Source of the DNA: Candidatus Poribacteria bacterium
Lineage (GTDB): Bacteria; Poribacteria; WGA-4E; WGA-3G
Assembly (NCBI GenBank): GCA_003635185.1
Contig: PYJA01000069.1
Location: 1,027 to 65,026 of the forward strand
Direction of reading: 5' to 3'
Length of the DNA stretch: 64,000 nucleotides
The notes beneath the pieces are model-generated. The model searched no databases. It saw nothing but the letters and a program-made list of their open reading frames with translations, and had not been told where the DNA came from. Numbering within the stretch: position 1 is the first letter of the stretch; each line of letters begins with the position of its first letter. Shown here in pieces: positions 20,651 to 29,682 of the stretch. A program made the translations under genes and the position numbers.

Positions 20651-21382
20651 TCAGTTACTGCTTCTTGGTACTTGTTCAATAATACGGTCAGCAAGTTTTG
20701 AAAAAGGTAAACTTTGGAGGTAAACAGTGCCAGTGCCTTGTAGAGTCGCGAGAAAAAGCCCTTCACCACCGAAGAACATTGACTTTAAGCCTTTGACCAT
20801 TTCAATGTCATAATCAACGCCAGATGTGAAAGCGACAAGGCAACCGGTATCAATGCGGAGTGTGTCGTTGACAAGTTCCTTTTTGATGACAGTCCCACCA
20901 GCATGCACAAAAGCCATGCCATCGCCACGTAGGAGTTGGAGGATAAAGCCCTCACCACCGAAAAAACCTCTTCCCAATTTTCGTGAAAAGGCGATGCTTA
21001 GCTCGGTACCCAAAGCGGCGCATAGGAAAGCATCCTTCTGACAGGTTAGTTCTCCACCCATTTCAGCAAGGTCAATGGGGATAATATGACCGGGATAGGG
21101 CGCGGCAAAAGCAACTCGTCTCTTGTTGCTGCCCGTATTGGTAAAGTGAGTCAAAAATAGCGACTCACCAGTGAGCGCACGTTTGCCTGCACTGAAGAGT
21201 TTGCCCATTAAACCCTCGTCACCACCTGAACCGTCGCCCATTTTTGCTTCGTACTCTATGTCTTCCTCCATCCAGTTCATCGCACCGGCTTCCGCGACAA
21301 TTGTCTCACCTAAGTCAAGTTCAACCTCAACGACTTGCATATCGTTGCCAAAAATTTCGTAATCTACTTCGTGGCTTTGCAT
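20651..21382 (-). CDS. AIM24 / TIGR00266-family protein (DUF124)
   Basis: The pattern is characteristic of the family: VDYEI.G...QVVEVEL......VAEAGAM.WM, then GGEGF, then GTVYLQSLP. Confidence 0.8.
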
Positions 21383-21570: not shown

Positions 21571-23139
21571 CTAATTTTCATTTTTTTCTACTGCTTCCAC
21601 AGAAATTTTTGCATAAAAAGCATTGACGTTTCCTTTACCACTGAACCAAGTGCCGGTAGCACCCAGCTTAAAGATTTTACCTTCGTTAAAAGGATATTGT
21701 ATTTTTCCTATCTGTCCAGATGGAATATCCCATACAGAGGCCCGTGCTTCGGTTGGAATTCCTCTTGTAGGCAATTCGGTATCGCCATCAAACAGATCAA
21801 ACGATCCACCTGATTTGGCGCTACCCATCCGAATATCAATCATAAGCACACCACCATCTTTAAACGCTATGGTATCAATCGTAATAACGTTATAGTCTTG
21901 CTCGCCGTATCCTGGCGCGCGAAGTATGTGTAGGACCTCTTGCTCAAAATGTTCTTTATTGAGGGTTATATTTGCACCAGTTAATAGAGGTTCTGATATG
22001 TTCTCACCGAATCCAGGGAATTTCGCATCTAAGGAATCCATGAGAAACATAAGGTAACCATCCTCTTCCGAAATGCCCTTTTGATAGCAGTCGTCAAAGA
22101 AATCATTAAGAGGAAGTTTTCCCATCACATCAAATTCAGGAGAAATCACTAAACAATCCACCGGTGAACCTTCTGTCCATCCTTCCATGATGGCTTGTGC
22201 CAAAGGATATGTTGTGTTTAATGTTTTTCCTTCTCGCTCGCGTCTTTTTGCTATTGGCTCTCGTAAACTGGGAGTACGTCCTAATTCGGCATTGGTTACC
22301 CAAGTATTGATAAAGTTTTCATTTAGGAATTCAATGATTTGGTTATCAGAGAGGACAACTGCCCTCAATTCTTTGCCGCTCCCTCAGCAAGCCTCGTCGA
22401 CTAATGGACCATCTATTGAGACTACATGAATGAGCTTAACCTCTTGTTCTGCTATCTCTACTGCTTGATCTGGTGGCACCCAGTTAATTTTTTCCGACTT
22501 GTAGAAACACAGTATTAGTGCACGTTCCGCCTCTTCTTGGGTAATTGACATGGCGAATTCGAGATCATCAGGTTGTGTGCCTGCACAGAGTTCTATTTGA
22601 GGACAGAAACCGATGTCTGTACAGCCTATCGTATCCCAACCAACATCGAAATTCAGTGTCGTTTCAGGCACGTGCATCTGAAAGCGGACGATTTTATCTT
22701 TGGTTTGGTCGATGACGAGATGACCAGCAAACTGGGACGGTGTGAACCAACCCCCCTTTAAAGCAAATTCTGCATGAATGCGAAACACAATGTCTGCAAA
22801 TTCATCGTTGTAGGCGCGTAGACATGCCCACAGACCTTGTGAGTCTTCCGCATCCATTTCCAGGCGTGGATCGGGATGGAGTTGCTGTAGCAACGTCAGC
22901 GCGCTTTCTTCTTGAATCTGCCAACATTCACCCACCGCAACCGCTTCTGATGGCAGAAAAGATTGAAAAACCGAAGCAGGATATTGCTTTTCCGGTTCAA
23001 CGACACGCAGATTTGCCAATTCGTCCCACTCCACGTGGAAATTGTATTGTGTGTATTCAATCGGAGCAATGAAGCCTTTGACGCTGACTTCCGCGTTCCT
23101 ATCAAGATTAAGTGTGATTTGGTTTTGTAAAGTTTCCAT
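21571..23139 (-). CDS. candidate selenoprotein, copy 1 (522 codons if the TGA at 22384-22386 is decoded as Sec); thioredoxin-fold-like centre with a C-U-G motif
   Basis: ORFs 22384..23139 and 21571..22368 share one frame and are separated only by a TGA. Conservation with copy 2 runs across the TGA. Confidence 0.6.
22351..22366 (-). promoter_or_regulatory. small hairpin 17 nt downstream of the in-frame UGA (candidate bacterial SECIS apical stem-loop), copy 1
   Basis: The mRNA reads UGA-N17-GAGGGC-AGUU-GUCCUC. That is a 6-bp stem and a 4-nt loop containing G and U. Confidence 0.4.
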
Positions 23140-23140
23140 T

Positions 23141-24700
23141 TCAGTTTTCCTCTACAGAAATTTTTGCCTTAAAAGCATTGGTGCTGCCCTTCTCACTTCT
23201 ACCGTAACACCCGGTAGCACCCAACTTAAAAAACTGACCTCGGTCAAAACGGTGCGTGAGTTGCCCTGTCTCATCAGGTTCCAACCACTTCATCGCAAGT
23301 ACCATGTATTTAGTCACTCTTTCTGTTGTAGGGAGGTCGTCGTCACCATCAACTAAATAGAAGTGCCCTTCCGCATCGGCTCTCCCGGTTTCAATATCAA
23401 TAGTTAGCGTGCCGCCCTTTTCAAACGCCCTTGCATCAATTACAACGACTGTATAATCCTTATAACCAACTATTGGTGTCCGAAAAACATCAAAGACATC
23501 CTGTGAAGGTTCTTCACTGTTCAGAGTGATGTTCCCCAATCCGGGCTGCTTCCCCTCCAAACACTCCTTGAGGAACATAAGGTAACTCTCCTCGTCTCGG
23601 CGTTTTTTCTCCCAATTGTCGTTGAAGAATTCATTGACGAGTTGTCTGCCCATCAATTCAAAATCAGCTGATATGACGAAACAGTCTACGGGTGAACCTT
23701 TCTTTGATCCGGTTTTCCACCCCTTTATAATGGCTTGTGCCAACGGATGGCTTGTGTCGAATATCTTACCTTCGCGCTCGCATCTTTTGGCAATCGGATC
23801 TCGCAAACTCTGAGTACGTCCTAATTCAGCATCTGCCACCCAAGTGTTGATGAAATTTTCGTTCAGGAATTCAATGTTTTGGTCGTCAGAGAGAGCACCT
23901 GCCCTCAGGCTTTTGCCACTCCCTCAGCACGACTCATCCGCAAGTGGTCCACCTGATGAAATGGCGTGAATCGGTTTCTGTAGGACAGGTGCCAATTCCA
24001 ACGCTTTCTCCAGCGGGACCCAGTTAATTTGCGCTGACTTGTAAAAACATAACATTAATGTGTGCAATGCTTCCTCTTGTGTGATTGCTACTGTGAATTT
24101 AGCATCTTGCAAAACGTCTTGTTCACCTGCACAGAGTTCCATTTGCGGACAAAAACCGATGTCCGCTCCGCAGAGTCCATCTCTAATTGTCCAACGTGCA
24201 TCAAAGTTCAATGTGGCATCCGGAACGTGCATCTTGAAGGAGGCAACTTTCTTTTCTAATCGGTCAATAACCAGATGTCCAGCAAACTGCGATGGCGCAA
24301 ACCACCCTTTTTCTAAAACGAATTCCGCGTGAATACGGAACAGAATCTCAGCAAACGCACTGTTGTAGGCGCGTAGACATGCCCACAAACCGTAAGAATC
24401 CGCCCCACCAATTTTCAACTCCAATTGTGGGTTTGGACTGAGTTGTCGCAGCAGTGTTAATGCGCCTTCTTCTTGAATTTGCCAACATTCACCCACTGAA
24501 ACCGACTTCGATGGCAGGAATGCTTGAAAAATGGAGGTAGGATATTGCTTCTCTGGTTCAGCAGCCTTTAGATTTGCCAATTCGTCCCAATCCACGTGGT
24601 AGTTGCGTTGGGTATATTCAATCGGGGCAATGAAACCTCTGACTAAAACCTCTGCATCACCGTCAAGATTAAGCGTGATTTTGTCTGATAAAGTACTCAT
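23141..24700 (-). CDS. candidate selenoprotein, copy 2 (519 codons if the TGA at 23924-23926 is decoded as Sec)
   Basis: ORFs 23924..24700 and 23141..23839 are in one frame. The 28 codons after the TGA contain no stop and no ATG/GTG/TTG, yet they encode the conserved LSDDQNIEFLNENFINTW block. Confidence 0.6.
23891..23906 (-). promoter_or_regulatory. small hairpin 17 nt downstream of the in-frame UGA (candidate SECIS apical stem-loop), copy 2
   Basis: The mRNA reads UGA-N17-GAGGGC-AGGU-GCUCUC. Spacing is the same as in copy 1. The two differing 3'-arm positions swap G-C and G-U pairs, so pairing is preserved. Confidence 0.4.
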
Positions 24701-26398: not shown

Positions 26399-27466
26399 AT
26401 GGAAAAAACGCATCTATTCCACGCGCCTCACCTTCACGCGATTGCCCGTACGATTTTTGTTGCTGCTGGCGCATCTCAACATATTGCTGACGATGTTGCC
26501 GAGATTCTTGTTAAAGCTCATTTAGCCGGTCATGATTCACACGGTGTGCTGAGAATCCCAGCATACATCAGAGGCATTGATGCTGGAAACATAAAACCTT
26601 CTGCAGAACCTGAAGTCGTTGCCGAAACTGACAACACGTTACGCGTTGATGGAAAGGGGGCTTTTGGACACTATGTTTCACGATGGTCAATCCGGAAAGC
26701 CATAGCAAAAGCAAAGACATCTGCTGCTTGTTGTGTGAGTATTTTCAACACGGGACATATTGGTCGGTTAGGTGAGTATGCGGAAGAAGCAGCGGGAGCT
26801 GAGTGTATCGGGCTAATTTCTGTCGGAATGGGTGGCAAAGGTGCAGGTCCAACGGTGCCTTATGGCGGTTCACAAGGCACTTTCAGCACGAATCCGATCG
26901 CTATCGGTGTCCCAACAGGCGATGATGCGCCATTTATTGTTGACTACGCAACAAGTGTGATTGCCGAAGGTAAAATTCAGGTTGCGCGTAGCAAAGGGAC
27001 AGAATTGCCCGAAGGATGTATTTTAGATAAACACGGTGCACCGAGTATTAAACCTGCTGATTTTTACGATGGCGGCGCGCTTCTTGCATTTGGCAAACAT
27101 AAGGGATATGCGCTTGCAATGTTTACATGTTTGCTCGGCGGATTGGCGGGAACGTTTGATGCTGAGACAGGGCGAATGGGCGGCATCTTCATGCAAGTCA
27201 TTGATGTTAATGCTTTTACGCCAATAGCAGAATACCAGAAAGGGGTTCGTGCGTTTTTAGATGTTATTAAAGCTACACCACCTGCACACGGATTTGATGA
27301 AGTCTTAGTTCCAGGTGATTTTGAATCCCGCTACCGTGCTGAACGCCTACAGAGTGGGATTGAGATACCGTATACCATCAAAAATCAACTTCAGGAATGT
27401 GCAGATAAATTTGGGATTTCAATCGGTGCCGAGATAATCGGAGCAGAAGATAAAGCACGGTATTAA
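26399..27466 (+). CDS. Ldh_2-family (malate/L-lactate/sulfolactate-type) oxidoreductase
   Basis: Family blocks HDSHGV, GHIGRLGEY, FSTNPIA, DYATS and FGKHKGYAL. Confidence 0.85.
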   Translation: MEKTHLFHAPHLHAIARTIFVAAGASQHIADDVAEILVKAHLAGHDSHGVLRIPAYIRGIDAGNIKPSAEPEVVAETDNTLRVDGKGAFGHYVSRWSIRKAIAKAKTSAACCVSIFNTGHIGRLGEYAEEAAGAECIGLISVGMGGKGAGPTVPYGGSQGTFSTNPIAIGVPTGDDAPFIVDYATSVIAEGKIQVARSKGTELPEGCILDKHGAPSIKPADFYDGGALLAFGKHKGYALAMFTCLLGGLAGTFDAETGRMGGIFMQVIDVNAFTPIAEYQKGVRAFLDVIKATPPAHGFDEVLVPGDFESRYRAERLQSGIEIPYTIKNQLQECADKFGISIGAEIIGAEDKARY

Positions 27467-27708: not shown

Positions 27709-29682
27709 CTATTCGGTCTTAAGCCGTTTTTGACGATCTTGTAAAAATTTAATAACAGTATCTGCACTTTGGAAACCAAGAGTCCCTGCTTCATCTATGA
27801 CCATCTGCATTTGGATAGGGTTATTCGTCAACATCGTTTCTGCTTTTTGGTAATATTCTGCTGCGGCATCCTTTTCTCCGCTTTCTTGGTGCATGACTGC
27901 TAAGTAGATATGCGCAGCAGCGAACCGGGGCGATCTGGTGCGGTTTTTGATAAACTCCTCAAAGGCAAAGCGCGCATCAGTATACCGTTGGTCCTCAAAG
28001 TGGACCCTGCCGATGCGAAATAGTGCTCTGTCCGCATAGCTATCTTTGTATCCATCGGACAGATAAAGTTCGCGTTCAGGATAGCTGATAGTTGTTTGAT
28101 AAGCTTGCAATGCTTCGTCAAATCGCTGGAGTTTCCTGTAGATTTCACCTACTTGGAAGGTTGCCATCATGGCCTGTAAGGTATTTGGCTGTTGTTCAAT
28201 AATAGCATTGAAAATTTTGAGCGCGCTGTTTGGTTTTTCAAGTACGTCCACATAAATAATGCCCATACGGTAACGTGCTTCAGCTGCATAAGGCGATTTA
28301 GGATGCTCCTGCACTATTTTATTATAAGCCTTAACGGCTTTAGAATAATCCAGTAACTCGCGCTCATAGATAGTAGCGATCTGTAATTTTGTTCTAACTT
28401 TCTCGGCAACGTTTAATTGATTACCTTGAATTTGTAGAAGTAAATTTTGAATTGCCGCGCGGTGTTTAAGCGAACGAAGTTGTACTGCAGCCTGCTTAGC
28501 AAATTGTGTATCTGGGGCATGACTGATTAGATGACGCGCAATTTTTGAGGCTTCATCGTAGTTCCCACCTTCCACTGCTTTCTCAAGTTTTTCGAATTCG
28601 TGTTTGGGAATGCGTTGCGTTATCGTTCCTATTTTGCTCCGTACCAATTTGGTCACTTCCGCAGGACTTTTATCGTACATTGCAATCTGCCCAAGGTACA
28701 CTGGATCAAGCGTCGGAAGGTAAACGTTAAGGAAAATTTTAAAAGCGTTGCGTGCTTCGTAATAGTTCTGTATTTCCTCATAACAAATGCCGGACCAATA
28801 AAAAACTGCGGGCATATTCCAGAAGTTCGGGTATTTCTCATCGATTGAATCATATACAGTAAGTGCTTGTTGATACGCCTCTCCCTCGCGATGAATATTT
28901 GCAATATGGAAAAGTGCCTCGGCAGCGAAATTGCTCGTTGGATAGTTGTCCGCAACTTTTTTGTATGCATCAATTGCTAACGGCAATTGATGTAACACCG
29001 TATGCCTTAGATGTGCGATCCGCCATTGTGCTTCAGCAGCTAACTTGTCGGTAGGATATTTTTTAAGCAATTCTTGATATATTTCAATTGCACGTTCAGG
29101 TTGATTGAGTTGGTTATGCATTCGGTAGAGTTCAGCAATCTGAAATTTTGCAACCGTTTCAAGCGGGGTGTCTTTGTAGGTGCGTACAATCTCTTTCTGC
29201 ATCTGTAGATTTTTGAGTGCAGTTCGGATGTCTCGTATTTTCTGTAATCCGATTTTATGGACGAAATGTATTTCTGGTGCCGTGCCAACAAGCGTCCGGA
29301 AACTATGAATAGCCTTCTCATATTCTCCCATTCTACTGTACACATCACCAGTCTTAATATAGGAGAGAAAAATCTCAGCGATGGGCAACCCATCCGCTCT
29401 CATACTGAGGATTTTTTTATACGCCTTCAGTGCCTCTGGATATTGCTGCGTATAGTTGTAATATATCTCGCCAAGCTGGTAGTAGCACCTACTCCGAGTT
29501 TCAATATCTTTGGCAGATTTTGCAAGTTTCTCCAATTTGGTGGCAGCTTCTGTATAACGCTTTTCTTTAAGTAAGGAGGTAACTTCATCAAGCTGCGCGT
29601 GTGCAGTGCATAAAACCAGCGACATTAGCAGCATATACAACATGGCGCATTGGAGAATAGGAGTGAATTTCAAATTTTTCAC
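27709..29682 (-). CDS. secreted tetratricopeptide-repeat (TPR) protein
   Basis: N-terminal signal peptide followed by many TPR-like A..Y......P......A motifs. Confidence 0.8.
   Translation of the reverse strand: MKNLKFTPILQCAMLYMLLMSLVLCTAHAQLDEVTSLLKEKRYTEAATKLEKLAKSAKDIETRSRCYYQLGEIYYNYTQQYPEALKAYKKILSMRADGLPIAEIFLSYIKTGDVYSRMGEYEKAIHSFRTLVGTAPEIHFVHKIGLQKIRDIRTALKNLQMQKEIVRTYKDTPLETVAKFQIAELYRMHNQLNQPERAIEIYQELLKKYPTDKLAAEAQWRIAHLRHTVLHQLPLAIDAYKKVADNYPTSNFAAEALFHIANIHREGEAYQQALTVYDSIDEKYPNFWNMPAVFYWSGICYEEIQNYYEARNAFKIFLNVYLPTLDPVYLGQIAMYDKSPAEVTKLVRSKIGTITQRIPKHEFEKLEKAVEGGNYDEASKIARHLISHAPDTQFAKQAAVQLRSLKHRAAIQNLLLQIQGNQLNVAEKVRTKLQIATIYERELLDYSKAVKAYNKIVQEHPKSPYAAEARYRMGIIYVDVLEKPNSALKIFNAIIEQQPNTLQAMMATFQVGEIYRKLQRFDEALQAYQTTISYPERELYLSDGYKDSYADRALFRIGRVHFEDQRYTDARFAFEEFIKNRTRSPRFAAAHIYLAVMHQESGEKDAAAEYYQKAETMLTNNPIQMQMVIDEAGTLGFQSADTVIKFLQDRQKRLKTE

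Follow-up and report, generated by a model that had tools for sequence, protein, structure and literature searches.

The window analyzed here is the whole 64,000-nucleotide stretch of contig PYJA01000069.1 from a sponge-symbiotic Candidatus Poribacteria bacterium, and its minus strand carries two tandem genes in which an in-frame UGA is followed at equal distance by a small hairpin. The two genes are paralogues with 61% identity, and each contains a single in-frame TGA (codon 252 in gene 1 and codon 259 in gene 2) and is otherwise open from start to stop. When gene 1 was translated with TGA as selenocysteine (Sec, U), the frame remained open and conservation continued past the UGA. On comparative sequence evidence, each hairpin is probably a bacterial selenocysteine insertion sequence (bSECIS) for reading the UGA as Sec, a reading to which we assign a probability of roughly 0.88. 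The hairpins had been proposed as candidate SECIS elements in an earlier note on this DNA, and the proposal is supported by their geometry, by covariation, by constraint beyond the encoded peptide, by the Sec machinery of the genus and by Cys homologues. A third copy, on another contig of the same genome (L018), had the same layout of UGA and hairpin. The TGA stop of gene 2 and the ATG of gene 1 are one base apart (TGA-A-ATG; window 23137-23143, minus strand), and the two genes are probably translationally coupled. The sequence GAGGA was also observed just upstream. No hairpin was present at +20 of the real TGA stop of gene 2.

Table 1. Features of the two tandem genes and of the selD gene found in the same genome; positions are those of the window unless a contig or locus is named.
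Feature	Position	Strand	Description
Gene 1, selenoprotein N-like	21571..23139	-	522 codons, U252; stop TAA 21571-21573
Gene 2, paralogue of gene 1	23141..24700	-	519 codons, U259; real stop TGA 23141-23143
Putative Sec codon UGA, gene 1	22384..22386	-	motif DEAC-U-GSGK
Putative Sec codon UGA, gene 2	23924..23926	-	motif DESC-U-GSGK
Candidate SECIS hairpin 1	22351..22366	-	GAGGGC 22366-22361, loop AGUU 22360-22357, GUCCUC 22356-22351
Candidate SECIS hairpin 2	23891..23906	-	GAGGGC 23906-23901, loop AGGU 23900-23897, GCUCUC 23896-23891
selD, own genome	G000:C15, L014 1483-2529		motif VKCAG-U-ASKL

The nucleotides (nt) of the hairpins are numbered with the T of TGA as 0. As the earlier note had described, the UGA in both mRNAs is followed by exactly 17 nt, a stem of 6 base pairs (bp) and a 4-nt loop. 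The two 3′ arms, GUCCUC and GCUCUC, differ but both pair: copy 1 forms G23-C32 and G24-U31, and copy 2 forms G23-U32 and G24-C31, with G-C and G-U trading places at 23:32 and 24:31. The equal spacing noted for the two copies was also found in 114 distinct homologous sequences, which were free of insertions and deletions from -6 to +60, and the distance from the UGA to the hairpin is therefore fixed. Both loops contain a G and a U, as had been claimed; the loops of the UGA copies are AGUU, AGGU, AGGC or GGUC, and the loop G at nt 27 was invariant in every one of them. The impression that the stem could not be extended also held, in that a conserved lower stem was absent and a longer alternative fold was unsupported.

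We compared these hairpins with the bSECIS consensus (bSECISearch model, Zhang and Gladyshev 2005; PMC13188914), which has a loop of 3-9 nt, an upper stem of 4-16 bp, a G in the first two loop positions that is usually followed by G or U, a distance of 16-37 nt from the UGA to the apical loop, and a minimum free energy (MFE) of -7.5 kcal/mol or lower. The G followed by G or U in the loop is the SelB-recognition signature (PMC13188914). The hairpins were found inside the open reading frame (ORF) directly downstream of the in-frame UGA, with a 4-nt loop, a 6-bp stem (7 bp in a second subfamily, described below), a loop G followed by G or U, and 23 nt between the UGA and the loop, which places them inside the published window as originally argued. 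The energies were borderline; the isolated hairpins had values of -7.7 (copy 1) and -7.4 kcal/mol (copy 2), which became -8.9 and -8.6 kcal/mol, respectively, in a 45-nt context. Across the family, the mean hairpin energy was -7.55 kcal/mol, and 78% of the hairpins were at or below -7.5 kcal/mol. The Rfam search gave no match, either at the gathering threshold or at E<=10.

Covariation was examined in 84 distinct sequences of the main subfamily. The stem 20-25/30-35 was paired in 98.8% of cells, a value that none of the 500 shuffles reached, and slid control stems paired in only 47-79%. Changes on both sides of a pair were present in 17 cells compared with 4.4 expected (0/500 shuffles). Pair 24:31 occurs as G-U, G-C, A-U or U-A through the residues Ala/Val, Ala/Ala, Thr/Val and Ser/Glu, and pair 23:32 occurs as G-C, G-U or A-U. 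Because shuffles ignore relatedness, a tree was also built from 576 nt of flanking sequence, the hairpin itself being masked. On this tree, the change G23>A (synonymous AGG>AGA) arose eight times, every time on a U32 background, which accounts for 21% of the tree length (C32 accounts for 74%), and G24 accompanied each of the ten U<>C changes at position 31. The check across homologues that the earlier note had suggested thus revealed pairing that is kept by compensatory changes.

The constraint on the codons of the hairpin exceeded that of the peptide. The normalised codon entropy was 0.15 at codons +6 to +11 and 0.77 at 97 other conserved columns, for which the 5th percentile was 0.47; no other region within +60 nt showed synonymous constraint that would mark it as the SECIS. 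Arg+7 is encoded solely by AGG or AGA, and AGG, the rarest Arg codon, which makes up 7% of the Arg codons elsewhere in these genes, was found there in 75 of the 90 copies; Leu+11 is CTC in 86/89. When sequences were drawn from the peptide and the codon usage of the family, the full 6/6 stem appeared in 3% of draws (maximum 5.6%), compared with 94% of the observed copies (n=90). The possibility raised at the outset, that the peptide fully explains the conservation, is not borne out by these values.

In a second subfamily with the motif C-U-A-N-G-K (ANGK, approximately 36% identical to gene 1), we found a 7-bp stem at 20-26/31-37 with the loop GGUC, and 96.7% of its cells were paired. This stem is one base out of register compared with that of the main subfamily, and the loop remains at nt 26-30 in both. 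The swap from G20:C37 to C20:G37 in the ANGK subfamily costs the protein Leu>Phe and Ser>Cys. The one-base slip between subfamilies suggests how a SECIS can drift without displacing its loop. Two other folds were tried and rejected for the main subfamily. The long MFE fold of copy 2 (1-8/30-37 plus 16-20/25-29) was 84.5% paired with no excess over shuffles, and its pairs failed in 58/84 and 32/84 sequences. The shifted register 20-24/33-37 had an ensemble probability near 0 in the main subfamily and was also broken in Thr, Ser, GGC and GCC variants, and it was real only in the ANGK subfamily.

Across the phylum Candidatus Poribacteria, a whole-genome search revealed approximately 870 matches in 131 of 176 genomes. 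Nearly all full-length matches carried exactly one TGA, and a second search with the distant subfamily agreed. At the Sec column, TGA was present in 125 of 126 distinct homologous contexts from approximately 100 genomes, and the remaining one was TCA. The family thus comprises hundreds of copies, with up to approximately 17 per genome. Among 1.8 billion representative proteins, almost every match stops at residue 251 or begins at residue 258; therefore, gene callers split the family at the TGA. Cys (TGC) at the Sec column was verified in DNA for two loci (L131 and L132), and Cys-type homologues were also found among proteins (P0137, P0140, P0150, P0161 and P0189). An in-frame TGA conserved in at least two sequences, together with Cys homologues at the same column, is what has been asked of a selenoprotein family (PMC1088965), and both were found here.

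Several further observations were made on the family. One complete Poribacteria genome contains approximately 17 UGA-bearing paralogues, with three tandem arrays (G162:C1 485522-501067, 2773417-2777112 and 5895068-5904336), and this family alone would rank the organism among selenoprotein-rich bacteria. Some homologues (P0019, P0040 and P0101) have a duplicated C-terminal β-sandwich domain; NCBI names P0101, a C-terminal fragment, 'BrnA antitoxin family protein', a label that is probably wrong. Family-wide, 122 of 123 copies use TGC for the Cys just 5′ of the UGA (window 22387-22389 and 23927-23929 on the minus strand), and TGT is favoured approximately 2:1 over TGC at the other Cys sites of the same genes. 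The base 3′ of the UGA is always G throughout the family, and Lys+4 is skewed to AAA (81/85 copies). The C-UGA-G context may itself influence decoding.

In the assembly of the same genome, which is 81.7% complete, we found a selD gene whose canonical site, VKCAG-U-ASK, has a Sec UGA. This UGA is followed by the hairpin GGCUC-CGGGU-GAGCU at +14 to +28, with 5 bp, a 5-nt loop and GGU at +21 to +23; compared with the E. coli SECIS, this selD hairpin has E. coli-like spacing. Of the 40 genomes from the same genus, 37 contained tRNA-Sec (anticodon UCA), 39 contained selB and 37 contained selA. The selB gene adjoins tRNA-Sec in these genomes, and the one tRNA-Sec-like gene in each relative was typed as SeC.

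Homologues that lack a UGA at the column provided natural controls from six lineages, a small set because the genome and metagenome scans for the Cys type gave one locus each. In the Cys copy L131 (TGC) and the Gly copy L133 (GGC), the stem is kept and the loop G is lost (loops AUUU and AACU, respectively), and in the Trp copy L135 (TGG), four of the six pairs remain with the loop AGAU. The stem is intact and the loop G is kept in the Ser copy L081 (TCA) and the Gly copy L136 (GGA), and the Cys copy L132 (TGC) has an intact stem with the loop GGUC. Because intact hairpins persist in L081, L132 and L136, the stem alone is not diagnostic. In this small sample, the decay of loop or stem in non-Sec copies is the pattern of relaxation after Sec loss, which has been described for other families (PMC13582414). 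With regard to gene context, the stop-free Gly homologues (L133 1-252 and L136 1-237) lie directly downstream of an extracytoplasmic function (ECF) sigma-70 gene, and P0137, a homologue of the Cys type, is a fusion with the N-terminus of an ECF sigma factor.

The proteins had no match in Pfam or NCBIfam or, by sequence, in the PDB. The AlphaFold 2 model of gene 1, with a predicted local distance difference test score of 87.6, has a β-rich N-domain, a central α/β domain and a C-terminal β-sandwich. When the central domain was modelled alone (residues 215-380), it adopted a thioredoxin fold and matched 7tkv, 2lst and 2ju5 with a probability of 1.00; the best fold matches are of the DsbH/Thioredoxin_7 type. 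In the model, C251-U252 is placed in the β1-α1 loop, the site of CxxC in thioredoxins. In BLASTP comparisons, gene 1 matched marmoset selenoprotein N (SelN) at E=8e-38 and the sea-urchin protein at E=5e-35, and in both alignments the C-U dyads fell at the same positions. Profile-profile alignment with hhalign against SelN extended over 340 columns, corresponding to SelN residues 123-551, with a probability of 100% and E=4e-54. The motif [A/S]-C-U-G-S-G is in register with SelN within the thioredoxin fold. SelN has an S-C-U-G redox motif in a thioredoxin-like domain, preceded by an N-terminal transmembrane segment and an EF-hand (PMC12839072). The alignment begins at approximately residue 123 of SelN, and the bacterial proteins begin approximately 25 residues earlier. 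Judged by these alignments, the family consists of bacterial homologues of animal SelN; no paper describing a bacterial SelN was found in a literature search.

In the animal SEPN1 mRNA, a hairpin called the Sec redefinition element (SRE) adjoins the UGA and enhances Sec insertion, and the disease mutations G463V, R466Q and R469W/Q lie in it at codons +1 to +7 (PMC12839072, PMC8584023, PMC3541580). We compared the bacterial hairpins with the SelN genes of two fish, sturgeon (L137) and arowana (L138). The intron of both genes starts one base after the Sec TGA (sturgeon L137 6780-7032, approximately 250 nt; arowana L138 4194-4411, approximately 215 nt), so the SRE hairpin is assembled only after splicing, and the two exon ends were joined before folding. 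In both fish mRNAs, a long stem-loop was predicted from 6 nt after the UGA onward, with energies of -31 to -38 kcal/mol, a predicted upper stem at 19-25/31-37 and an apical loop at nt 26-30. The corresponding apex lies at nt 26-29 in the main bacterial subfamily and at nt 27-30 in ANGK, in all cases on the L-R-x-x-V-L codons. For these two fish, the predicted folds show a positional homology that is new: the apex of the SelN stem-loop falls on the same nucleotides as the bacterial candidate SECIS loop.

We infer from this comparison that the animal SRE, which is mutated in SEPN1-related myopathy, and the bacterial hairpin may be the same element by descent, a possibility that we rate somewhat below even odds; the complementarity between the Arg and Leu codons is partly favoured by the shared peptide. 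If it is true, the SelN gene that passed between bacteria and the animal lineage encoded a selenoprotein and carried a hairpin in its ORF, and the old bacterial SECIS survived as an enhancer once a SECIS in the 3′ untranslated region (UTR) took over. If the transfer went in the reverse direction, an SRE was taken over for use as a SECIS.

The established E. coli model suggests how the bacterial hairpins would act. With the UGA in the A site of the ribosome, the first ~13 nt downstream would sit in the mRNA channel, and the 16-nt hairpin from +20 would fold just outside it. The apical loop A-G-(G/U)-U would be bound by the C-terminal winged-helix domains of SelB carrying GTP and Sec-tRNA(Sec), and SelB would bring Sec to the UGA in competition with release factor 2. 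The predicted product is a protein of approximately 520 residues in which a Cys-Sec dyad occupies the active-site position in a thioredoxin fold.

A number of observations weigh against the hairpins being SECIS elements. The stem is short, with an energy at the edge of the -7.5 kcal/mol criterion, below which copy 2 alone does not fall. RNAfold z-scores were not significant, with values of 0.07 and -0.24 in 63-nt windows and -1.13 and -1.12 in 93-nt windows, and in naked RNA the GGGAG after the UGA competes for the CUCUC arm and lowers the probability of the hairpin; because of this competition, the MFE structure of copy 2 is a different, longer one. The folding check that the earlier note had proposed therefore gave a divided answer: naked single sequences were not beyond chance, but the stem dominated when the ~13 nt taken to be covered by a ribosome with the UGA in its A site were left out of ensemble folding, with probabilities of 0.99 (copy 1), 0.76 (copy 2) and a family median of 0.99. 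Furthermore, the L-R-A-x-V-L peptide forces three of the six pairs, all sequences are related and come from one phylum, and intact hairpins are present in the non-Sec copies L081, L132 and L136. Finally, selA, selB and tRNA-Sec were undetected in the own assembly, at its completeness of 81.7%; judged from the relatives, this gap reflects the incomplete assembly.

The hairpin could instead be a SelB-independent recoding stimulator similar to the SRE, which slows or positions the ribosome at the UGA; SelB would then recognize another feature, or no particular one. An element of this type is found at these codons in the homologous animal gene (PMC12839072, PMC3541580), and the short, thermodynamically marginal stem and the persistence of hairpins in some non-Sec homologues would also fit. 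We consider this very unlikely, however, as no other synonymously constrained region within +60 nt is left to serve as the SECIS, the invariant loop G followed by G or U is the signature recognized by SelB in bacterial SECIS elements (PMC13188914), and it is this G that the Cys and Gly copies L131 and L133 lose while their stems remain.

It is very unlikely that the UGA is decoded as another amino acid, either as Cys by the tRNA-Sec-like tRNA(ReC), for which systems have been reported from other phyla (PMC13582414), or, through hairpin-aided near-cognate read-through, as Trp or Gly. Stop-free homologues with Gly, Trp and Ser in addition to Cys at the column are what such decoding might leave, but a single base separates each of the Gly, Trp and Ser codons from TGA, which is what decay following the loss of Sec would produce. 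In addition, the only tRNA-Sec-like gene of each relative is typed SeC, has the anticodon UCA and stands beside selB, and selA and a Sec-containing selD are present.

That the peptide (KELRAVVLS / KSLRAGALS) and codon bias account for the conservation, with no RNA element, has next to no probability: three of the six pairs do follow from L-R-A-x-V-L, but the full stem is observed at 0.94 instead of the expected 0.03, the entropy collapse is confined to codons +6 to +11, the rare AGG recurs at Arg+7, and the compensatory changes include non-synonymous ones. It is just as improbable that the UGA is a true stop between two genes per locus, with the hairpin as an intercistronic regulatory or terminator-like structure; public gene calls do split nearly all members here, but frame and conservation run straight past the UGA, no start codon or ribosome-binding site follows it, the thioredoxin fold is modelled with high confidence as spanning it (β1 before and α1 after), and translation continues past this column in the Cys homologues and in animal SelN.

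Reading of the UGA as Sec under a bSECIS thus remains the preferred interpretation, and the comparative evidence that these proteins form a large selenoprotein family is solid. In public annotation, this family is split into two "hypothetical" halves and has no Pfam or NCBIfam entry, and it was not met in the selenoprotein literature that was searched. Loss of SelN causes human myopathy, and to our knowledge its biochemical substrate is still unclear; the bacterial homologues would be a tractable system for the C-U-G thioredoxin-fold chemistry of SelN. The codons shared by the candidate SECIS and the SRE make the origin of coding-region recoding enhancers directly testable, as well as a cross-domain change of SECIS system by a selenoprotein gene.

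As for the surroundings of the two genes, an AIM24-family protein is encoded directly downstream of gene 1 (20651-21382, minus strand), and a Ldh_2 malate/L-lactate dehydrogenase (26399-27466, plus strand) and a large TPR protein (27709-29682, minus strand) are also neighbours. An obvious functional tie of these three to the selenoprotein genes was not apparent.

We compared the system with known ones. As in E. coli fdhF and the bSECIS consensus, the Poribacteria hairpin lies within the ORF, closely 3′ of the Sec UGA, and has a small G-G/U apical loop. In contrast to the consensus, it is limited to 6 bp and lacks both a bulged U and a lower stem, and its register varies by one base between subfamilies of one family. 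In the fdhF SECIS, a U bulges from the upper stem and the loop GU lies approximately 22-23 nt from the U of the UGA. The Poribacteria hairpins have no bulge and carry the loop G at +27, and their loop is approximately 5-6 nt further from the UGA than the fdhF loop.

Regarding the protein, the placement of Sec in the β1-α1 active-site loop is shared with thioredoxin-fold bacterial selenoproteins, and a vicinal C-U followed by G is shared with thioredoxin reductase (GCUG). The family differs from the thioredoxin-fold selenoproteins in having a C-U dyad rather than CxxU or UxxC and a three-domain architecture, and no Pfam or NCBIfam selenoprotein model matched it. With animal SelN, it shares the motif [S/A]-C-U-G-S-G-[K/R]-x-L-R in a thioredoxin-like domain and a coding-region stem-loop that adjoins the UGA. 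The bacterial proteins differ in having no transmembrane and EF-hand N-terminus, and their C-terminal β-sandwich is a bacterial addition. The animal gene uses a 3′-UTR SECIS with SBP2 and EFSec, and its SRE, which has a long lower stem, is only an enhancer, whereas the bacterial hairpin is the sole candidate SECIS of its gene.

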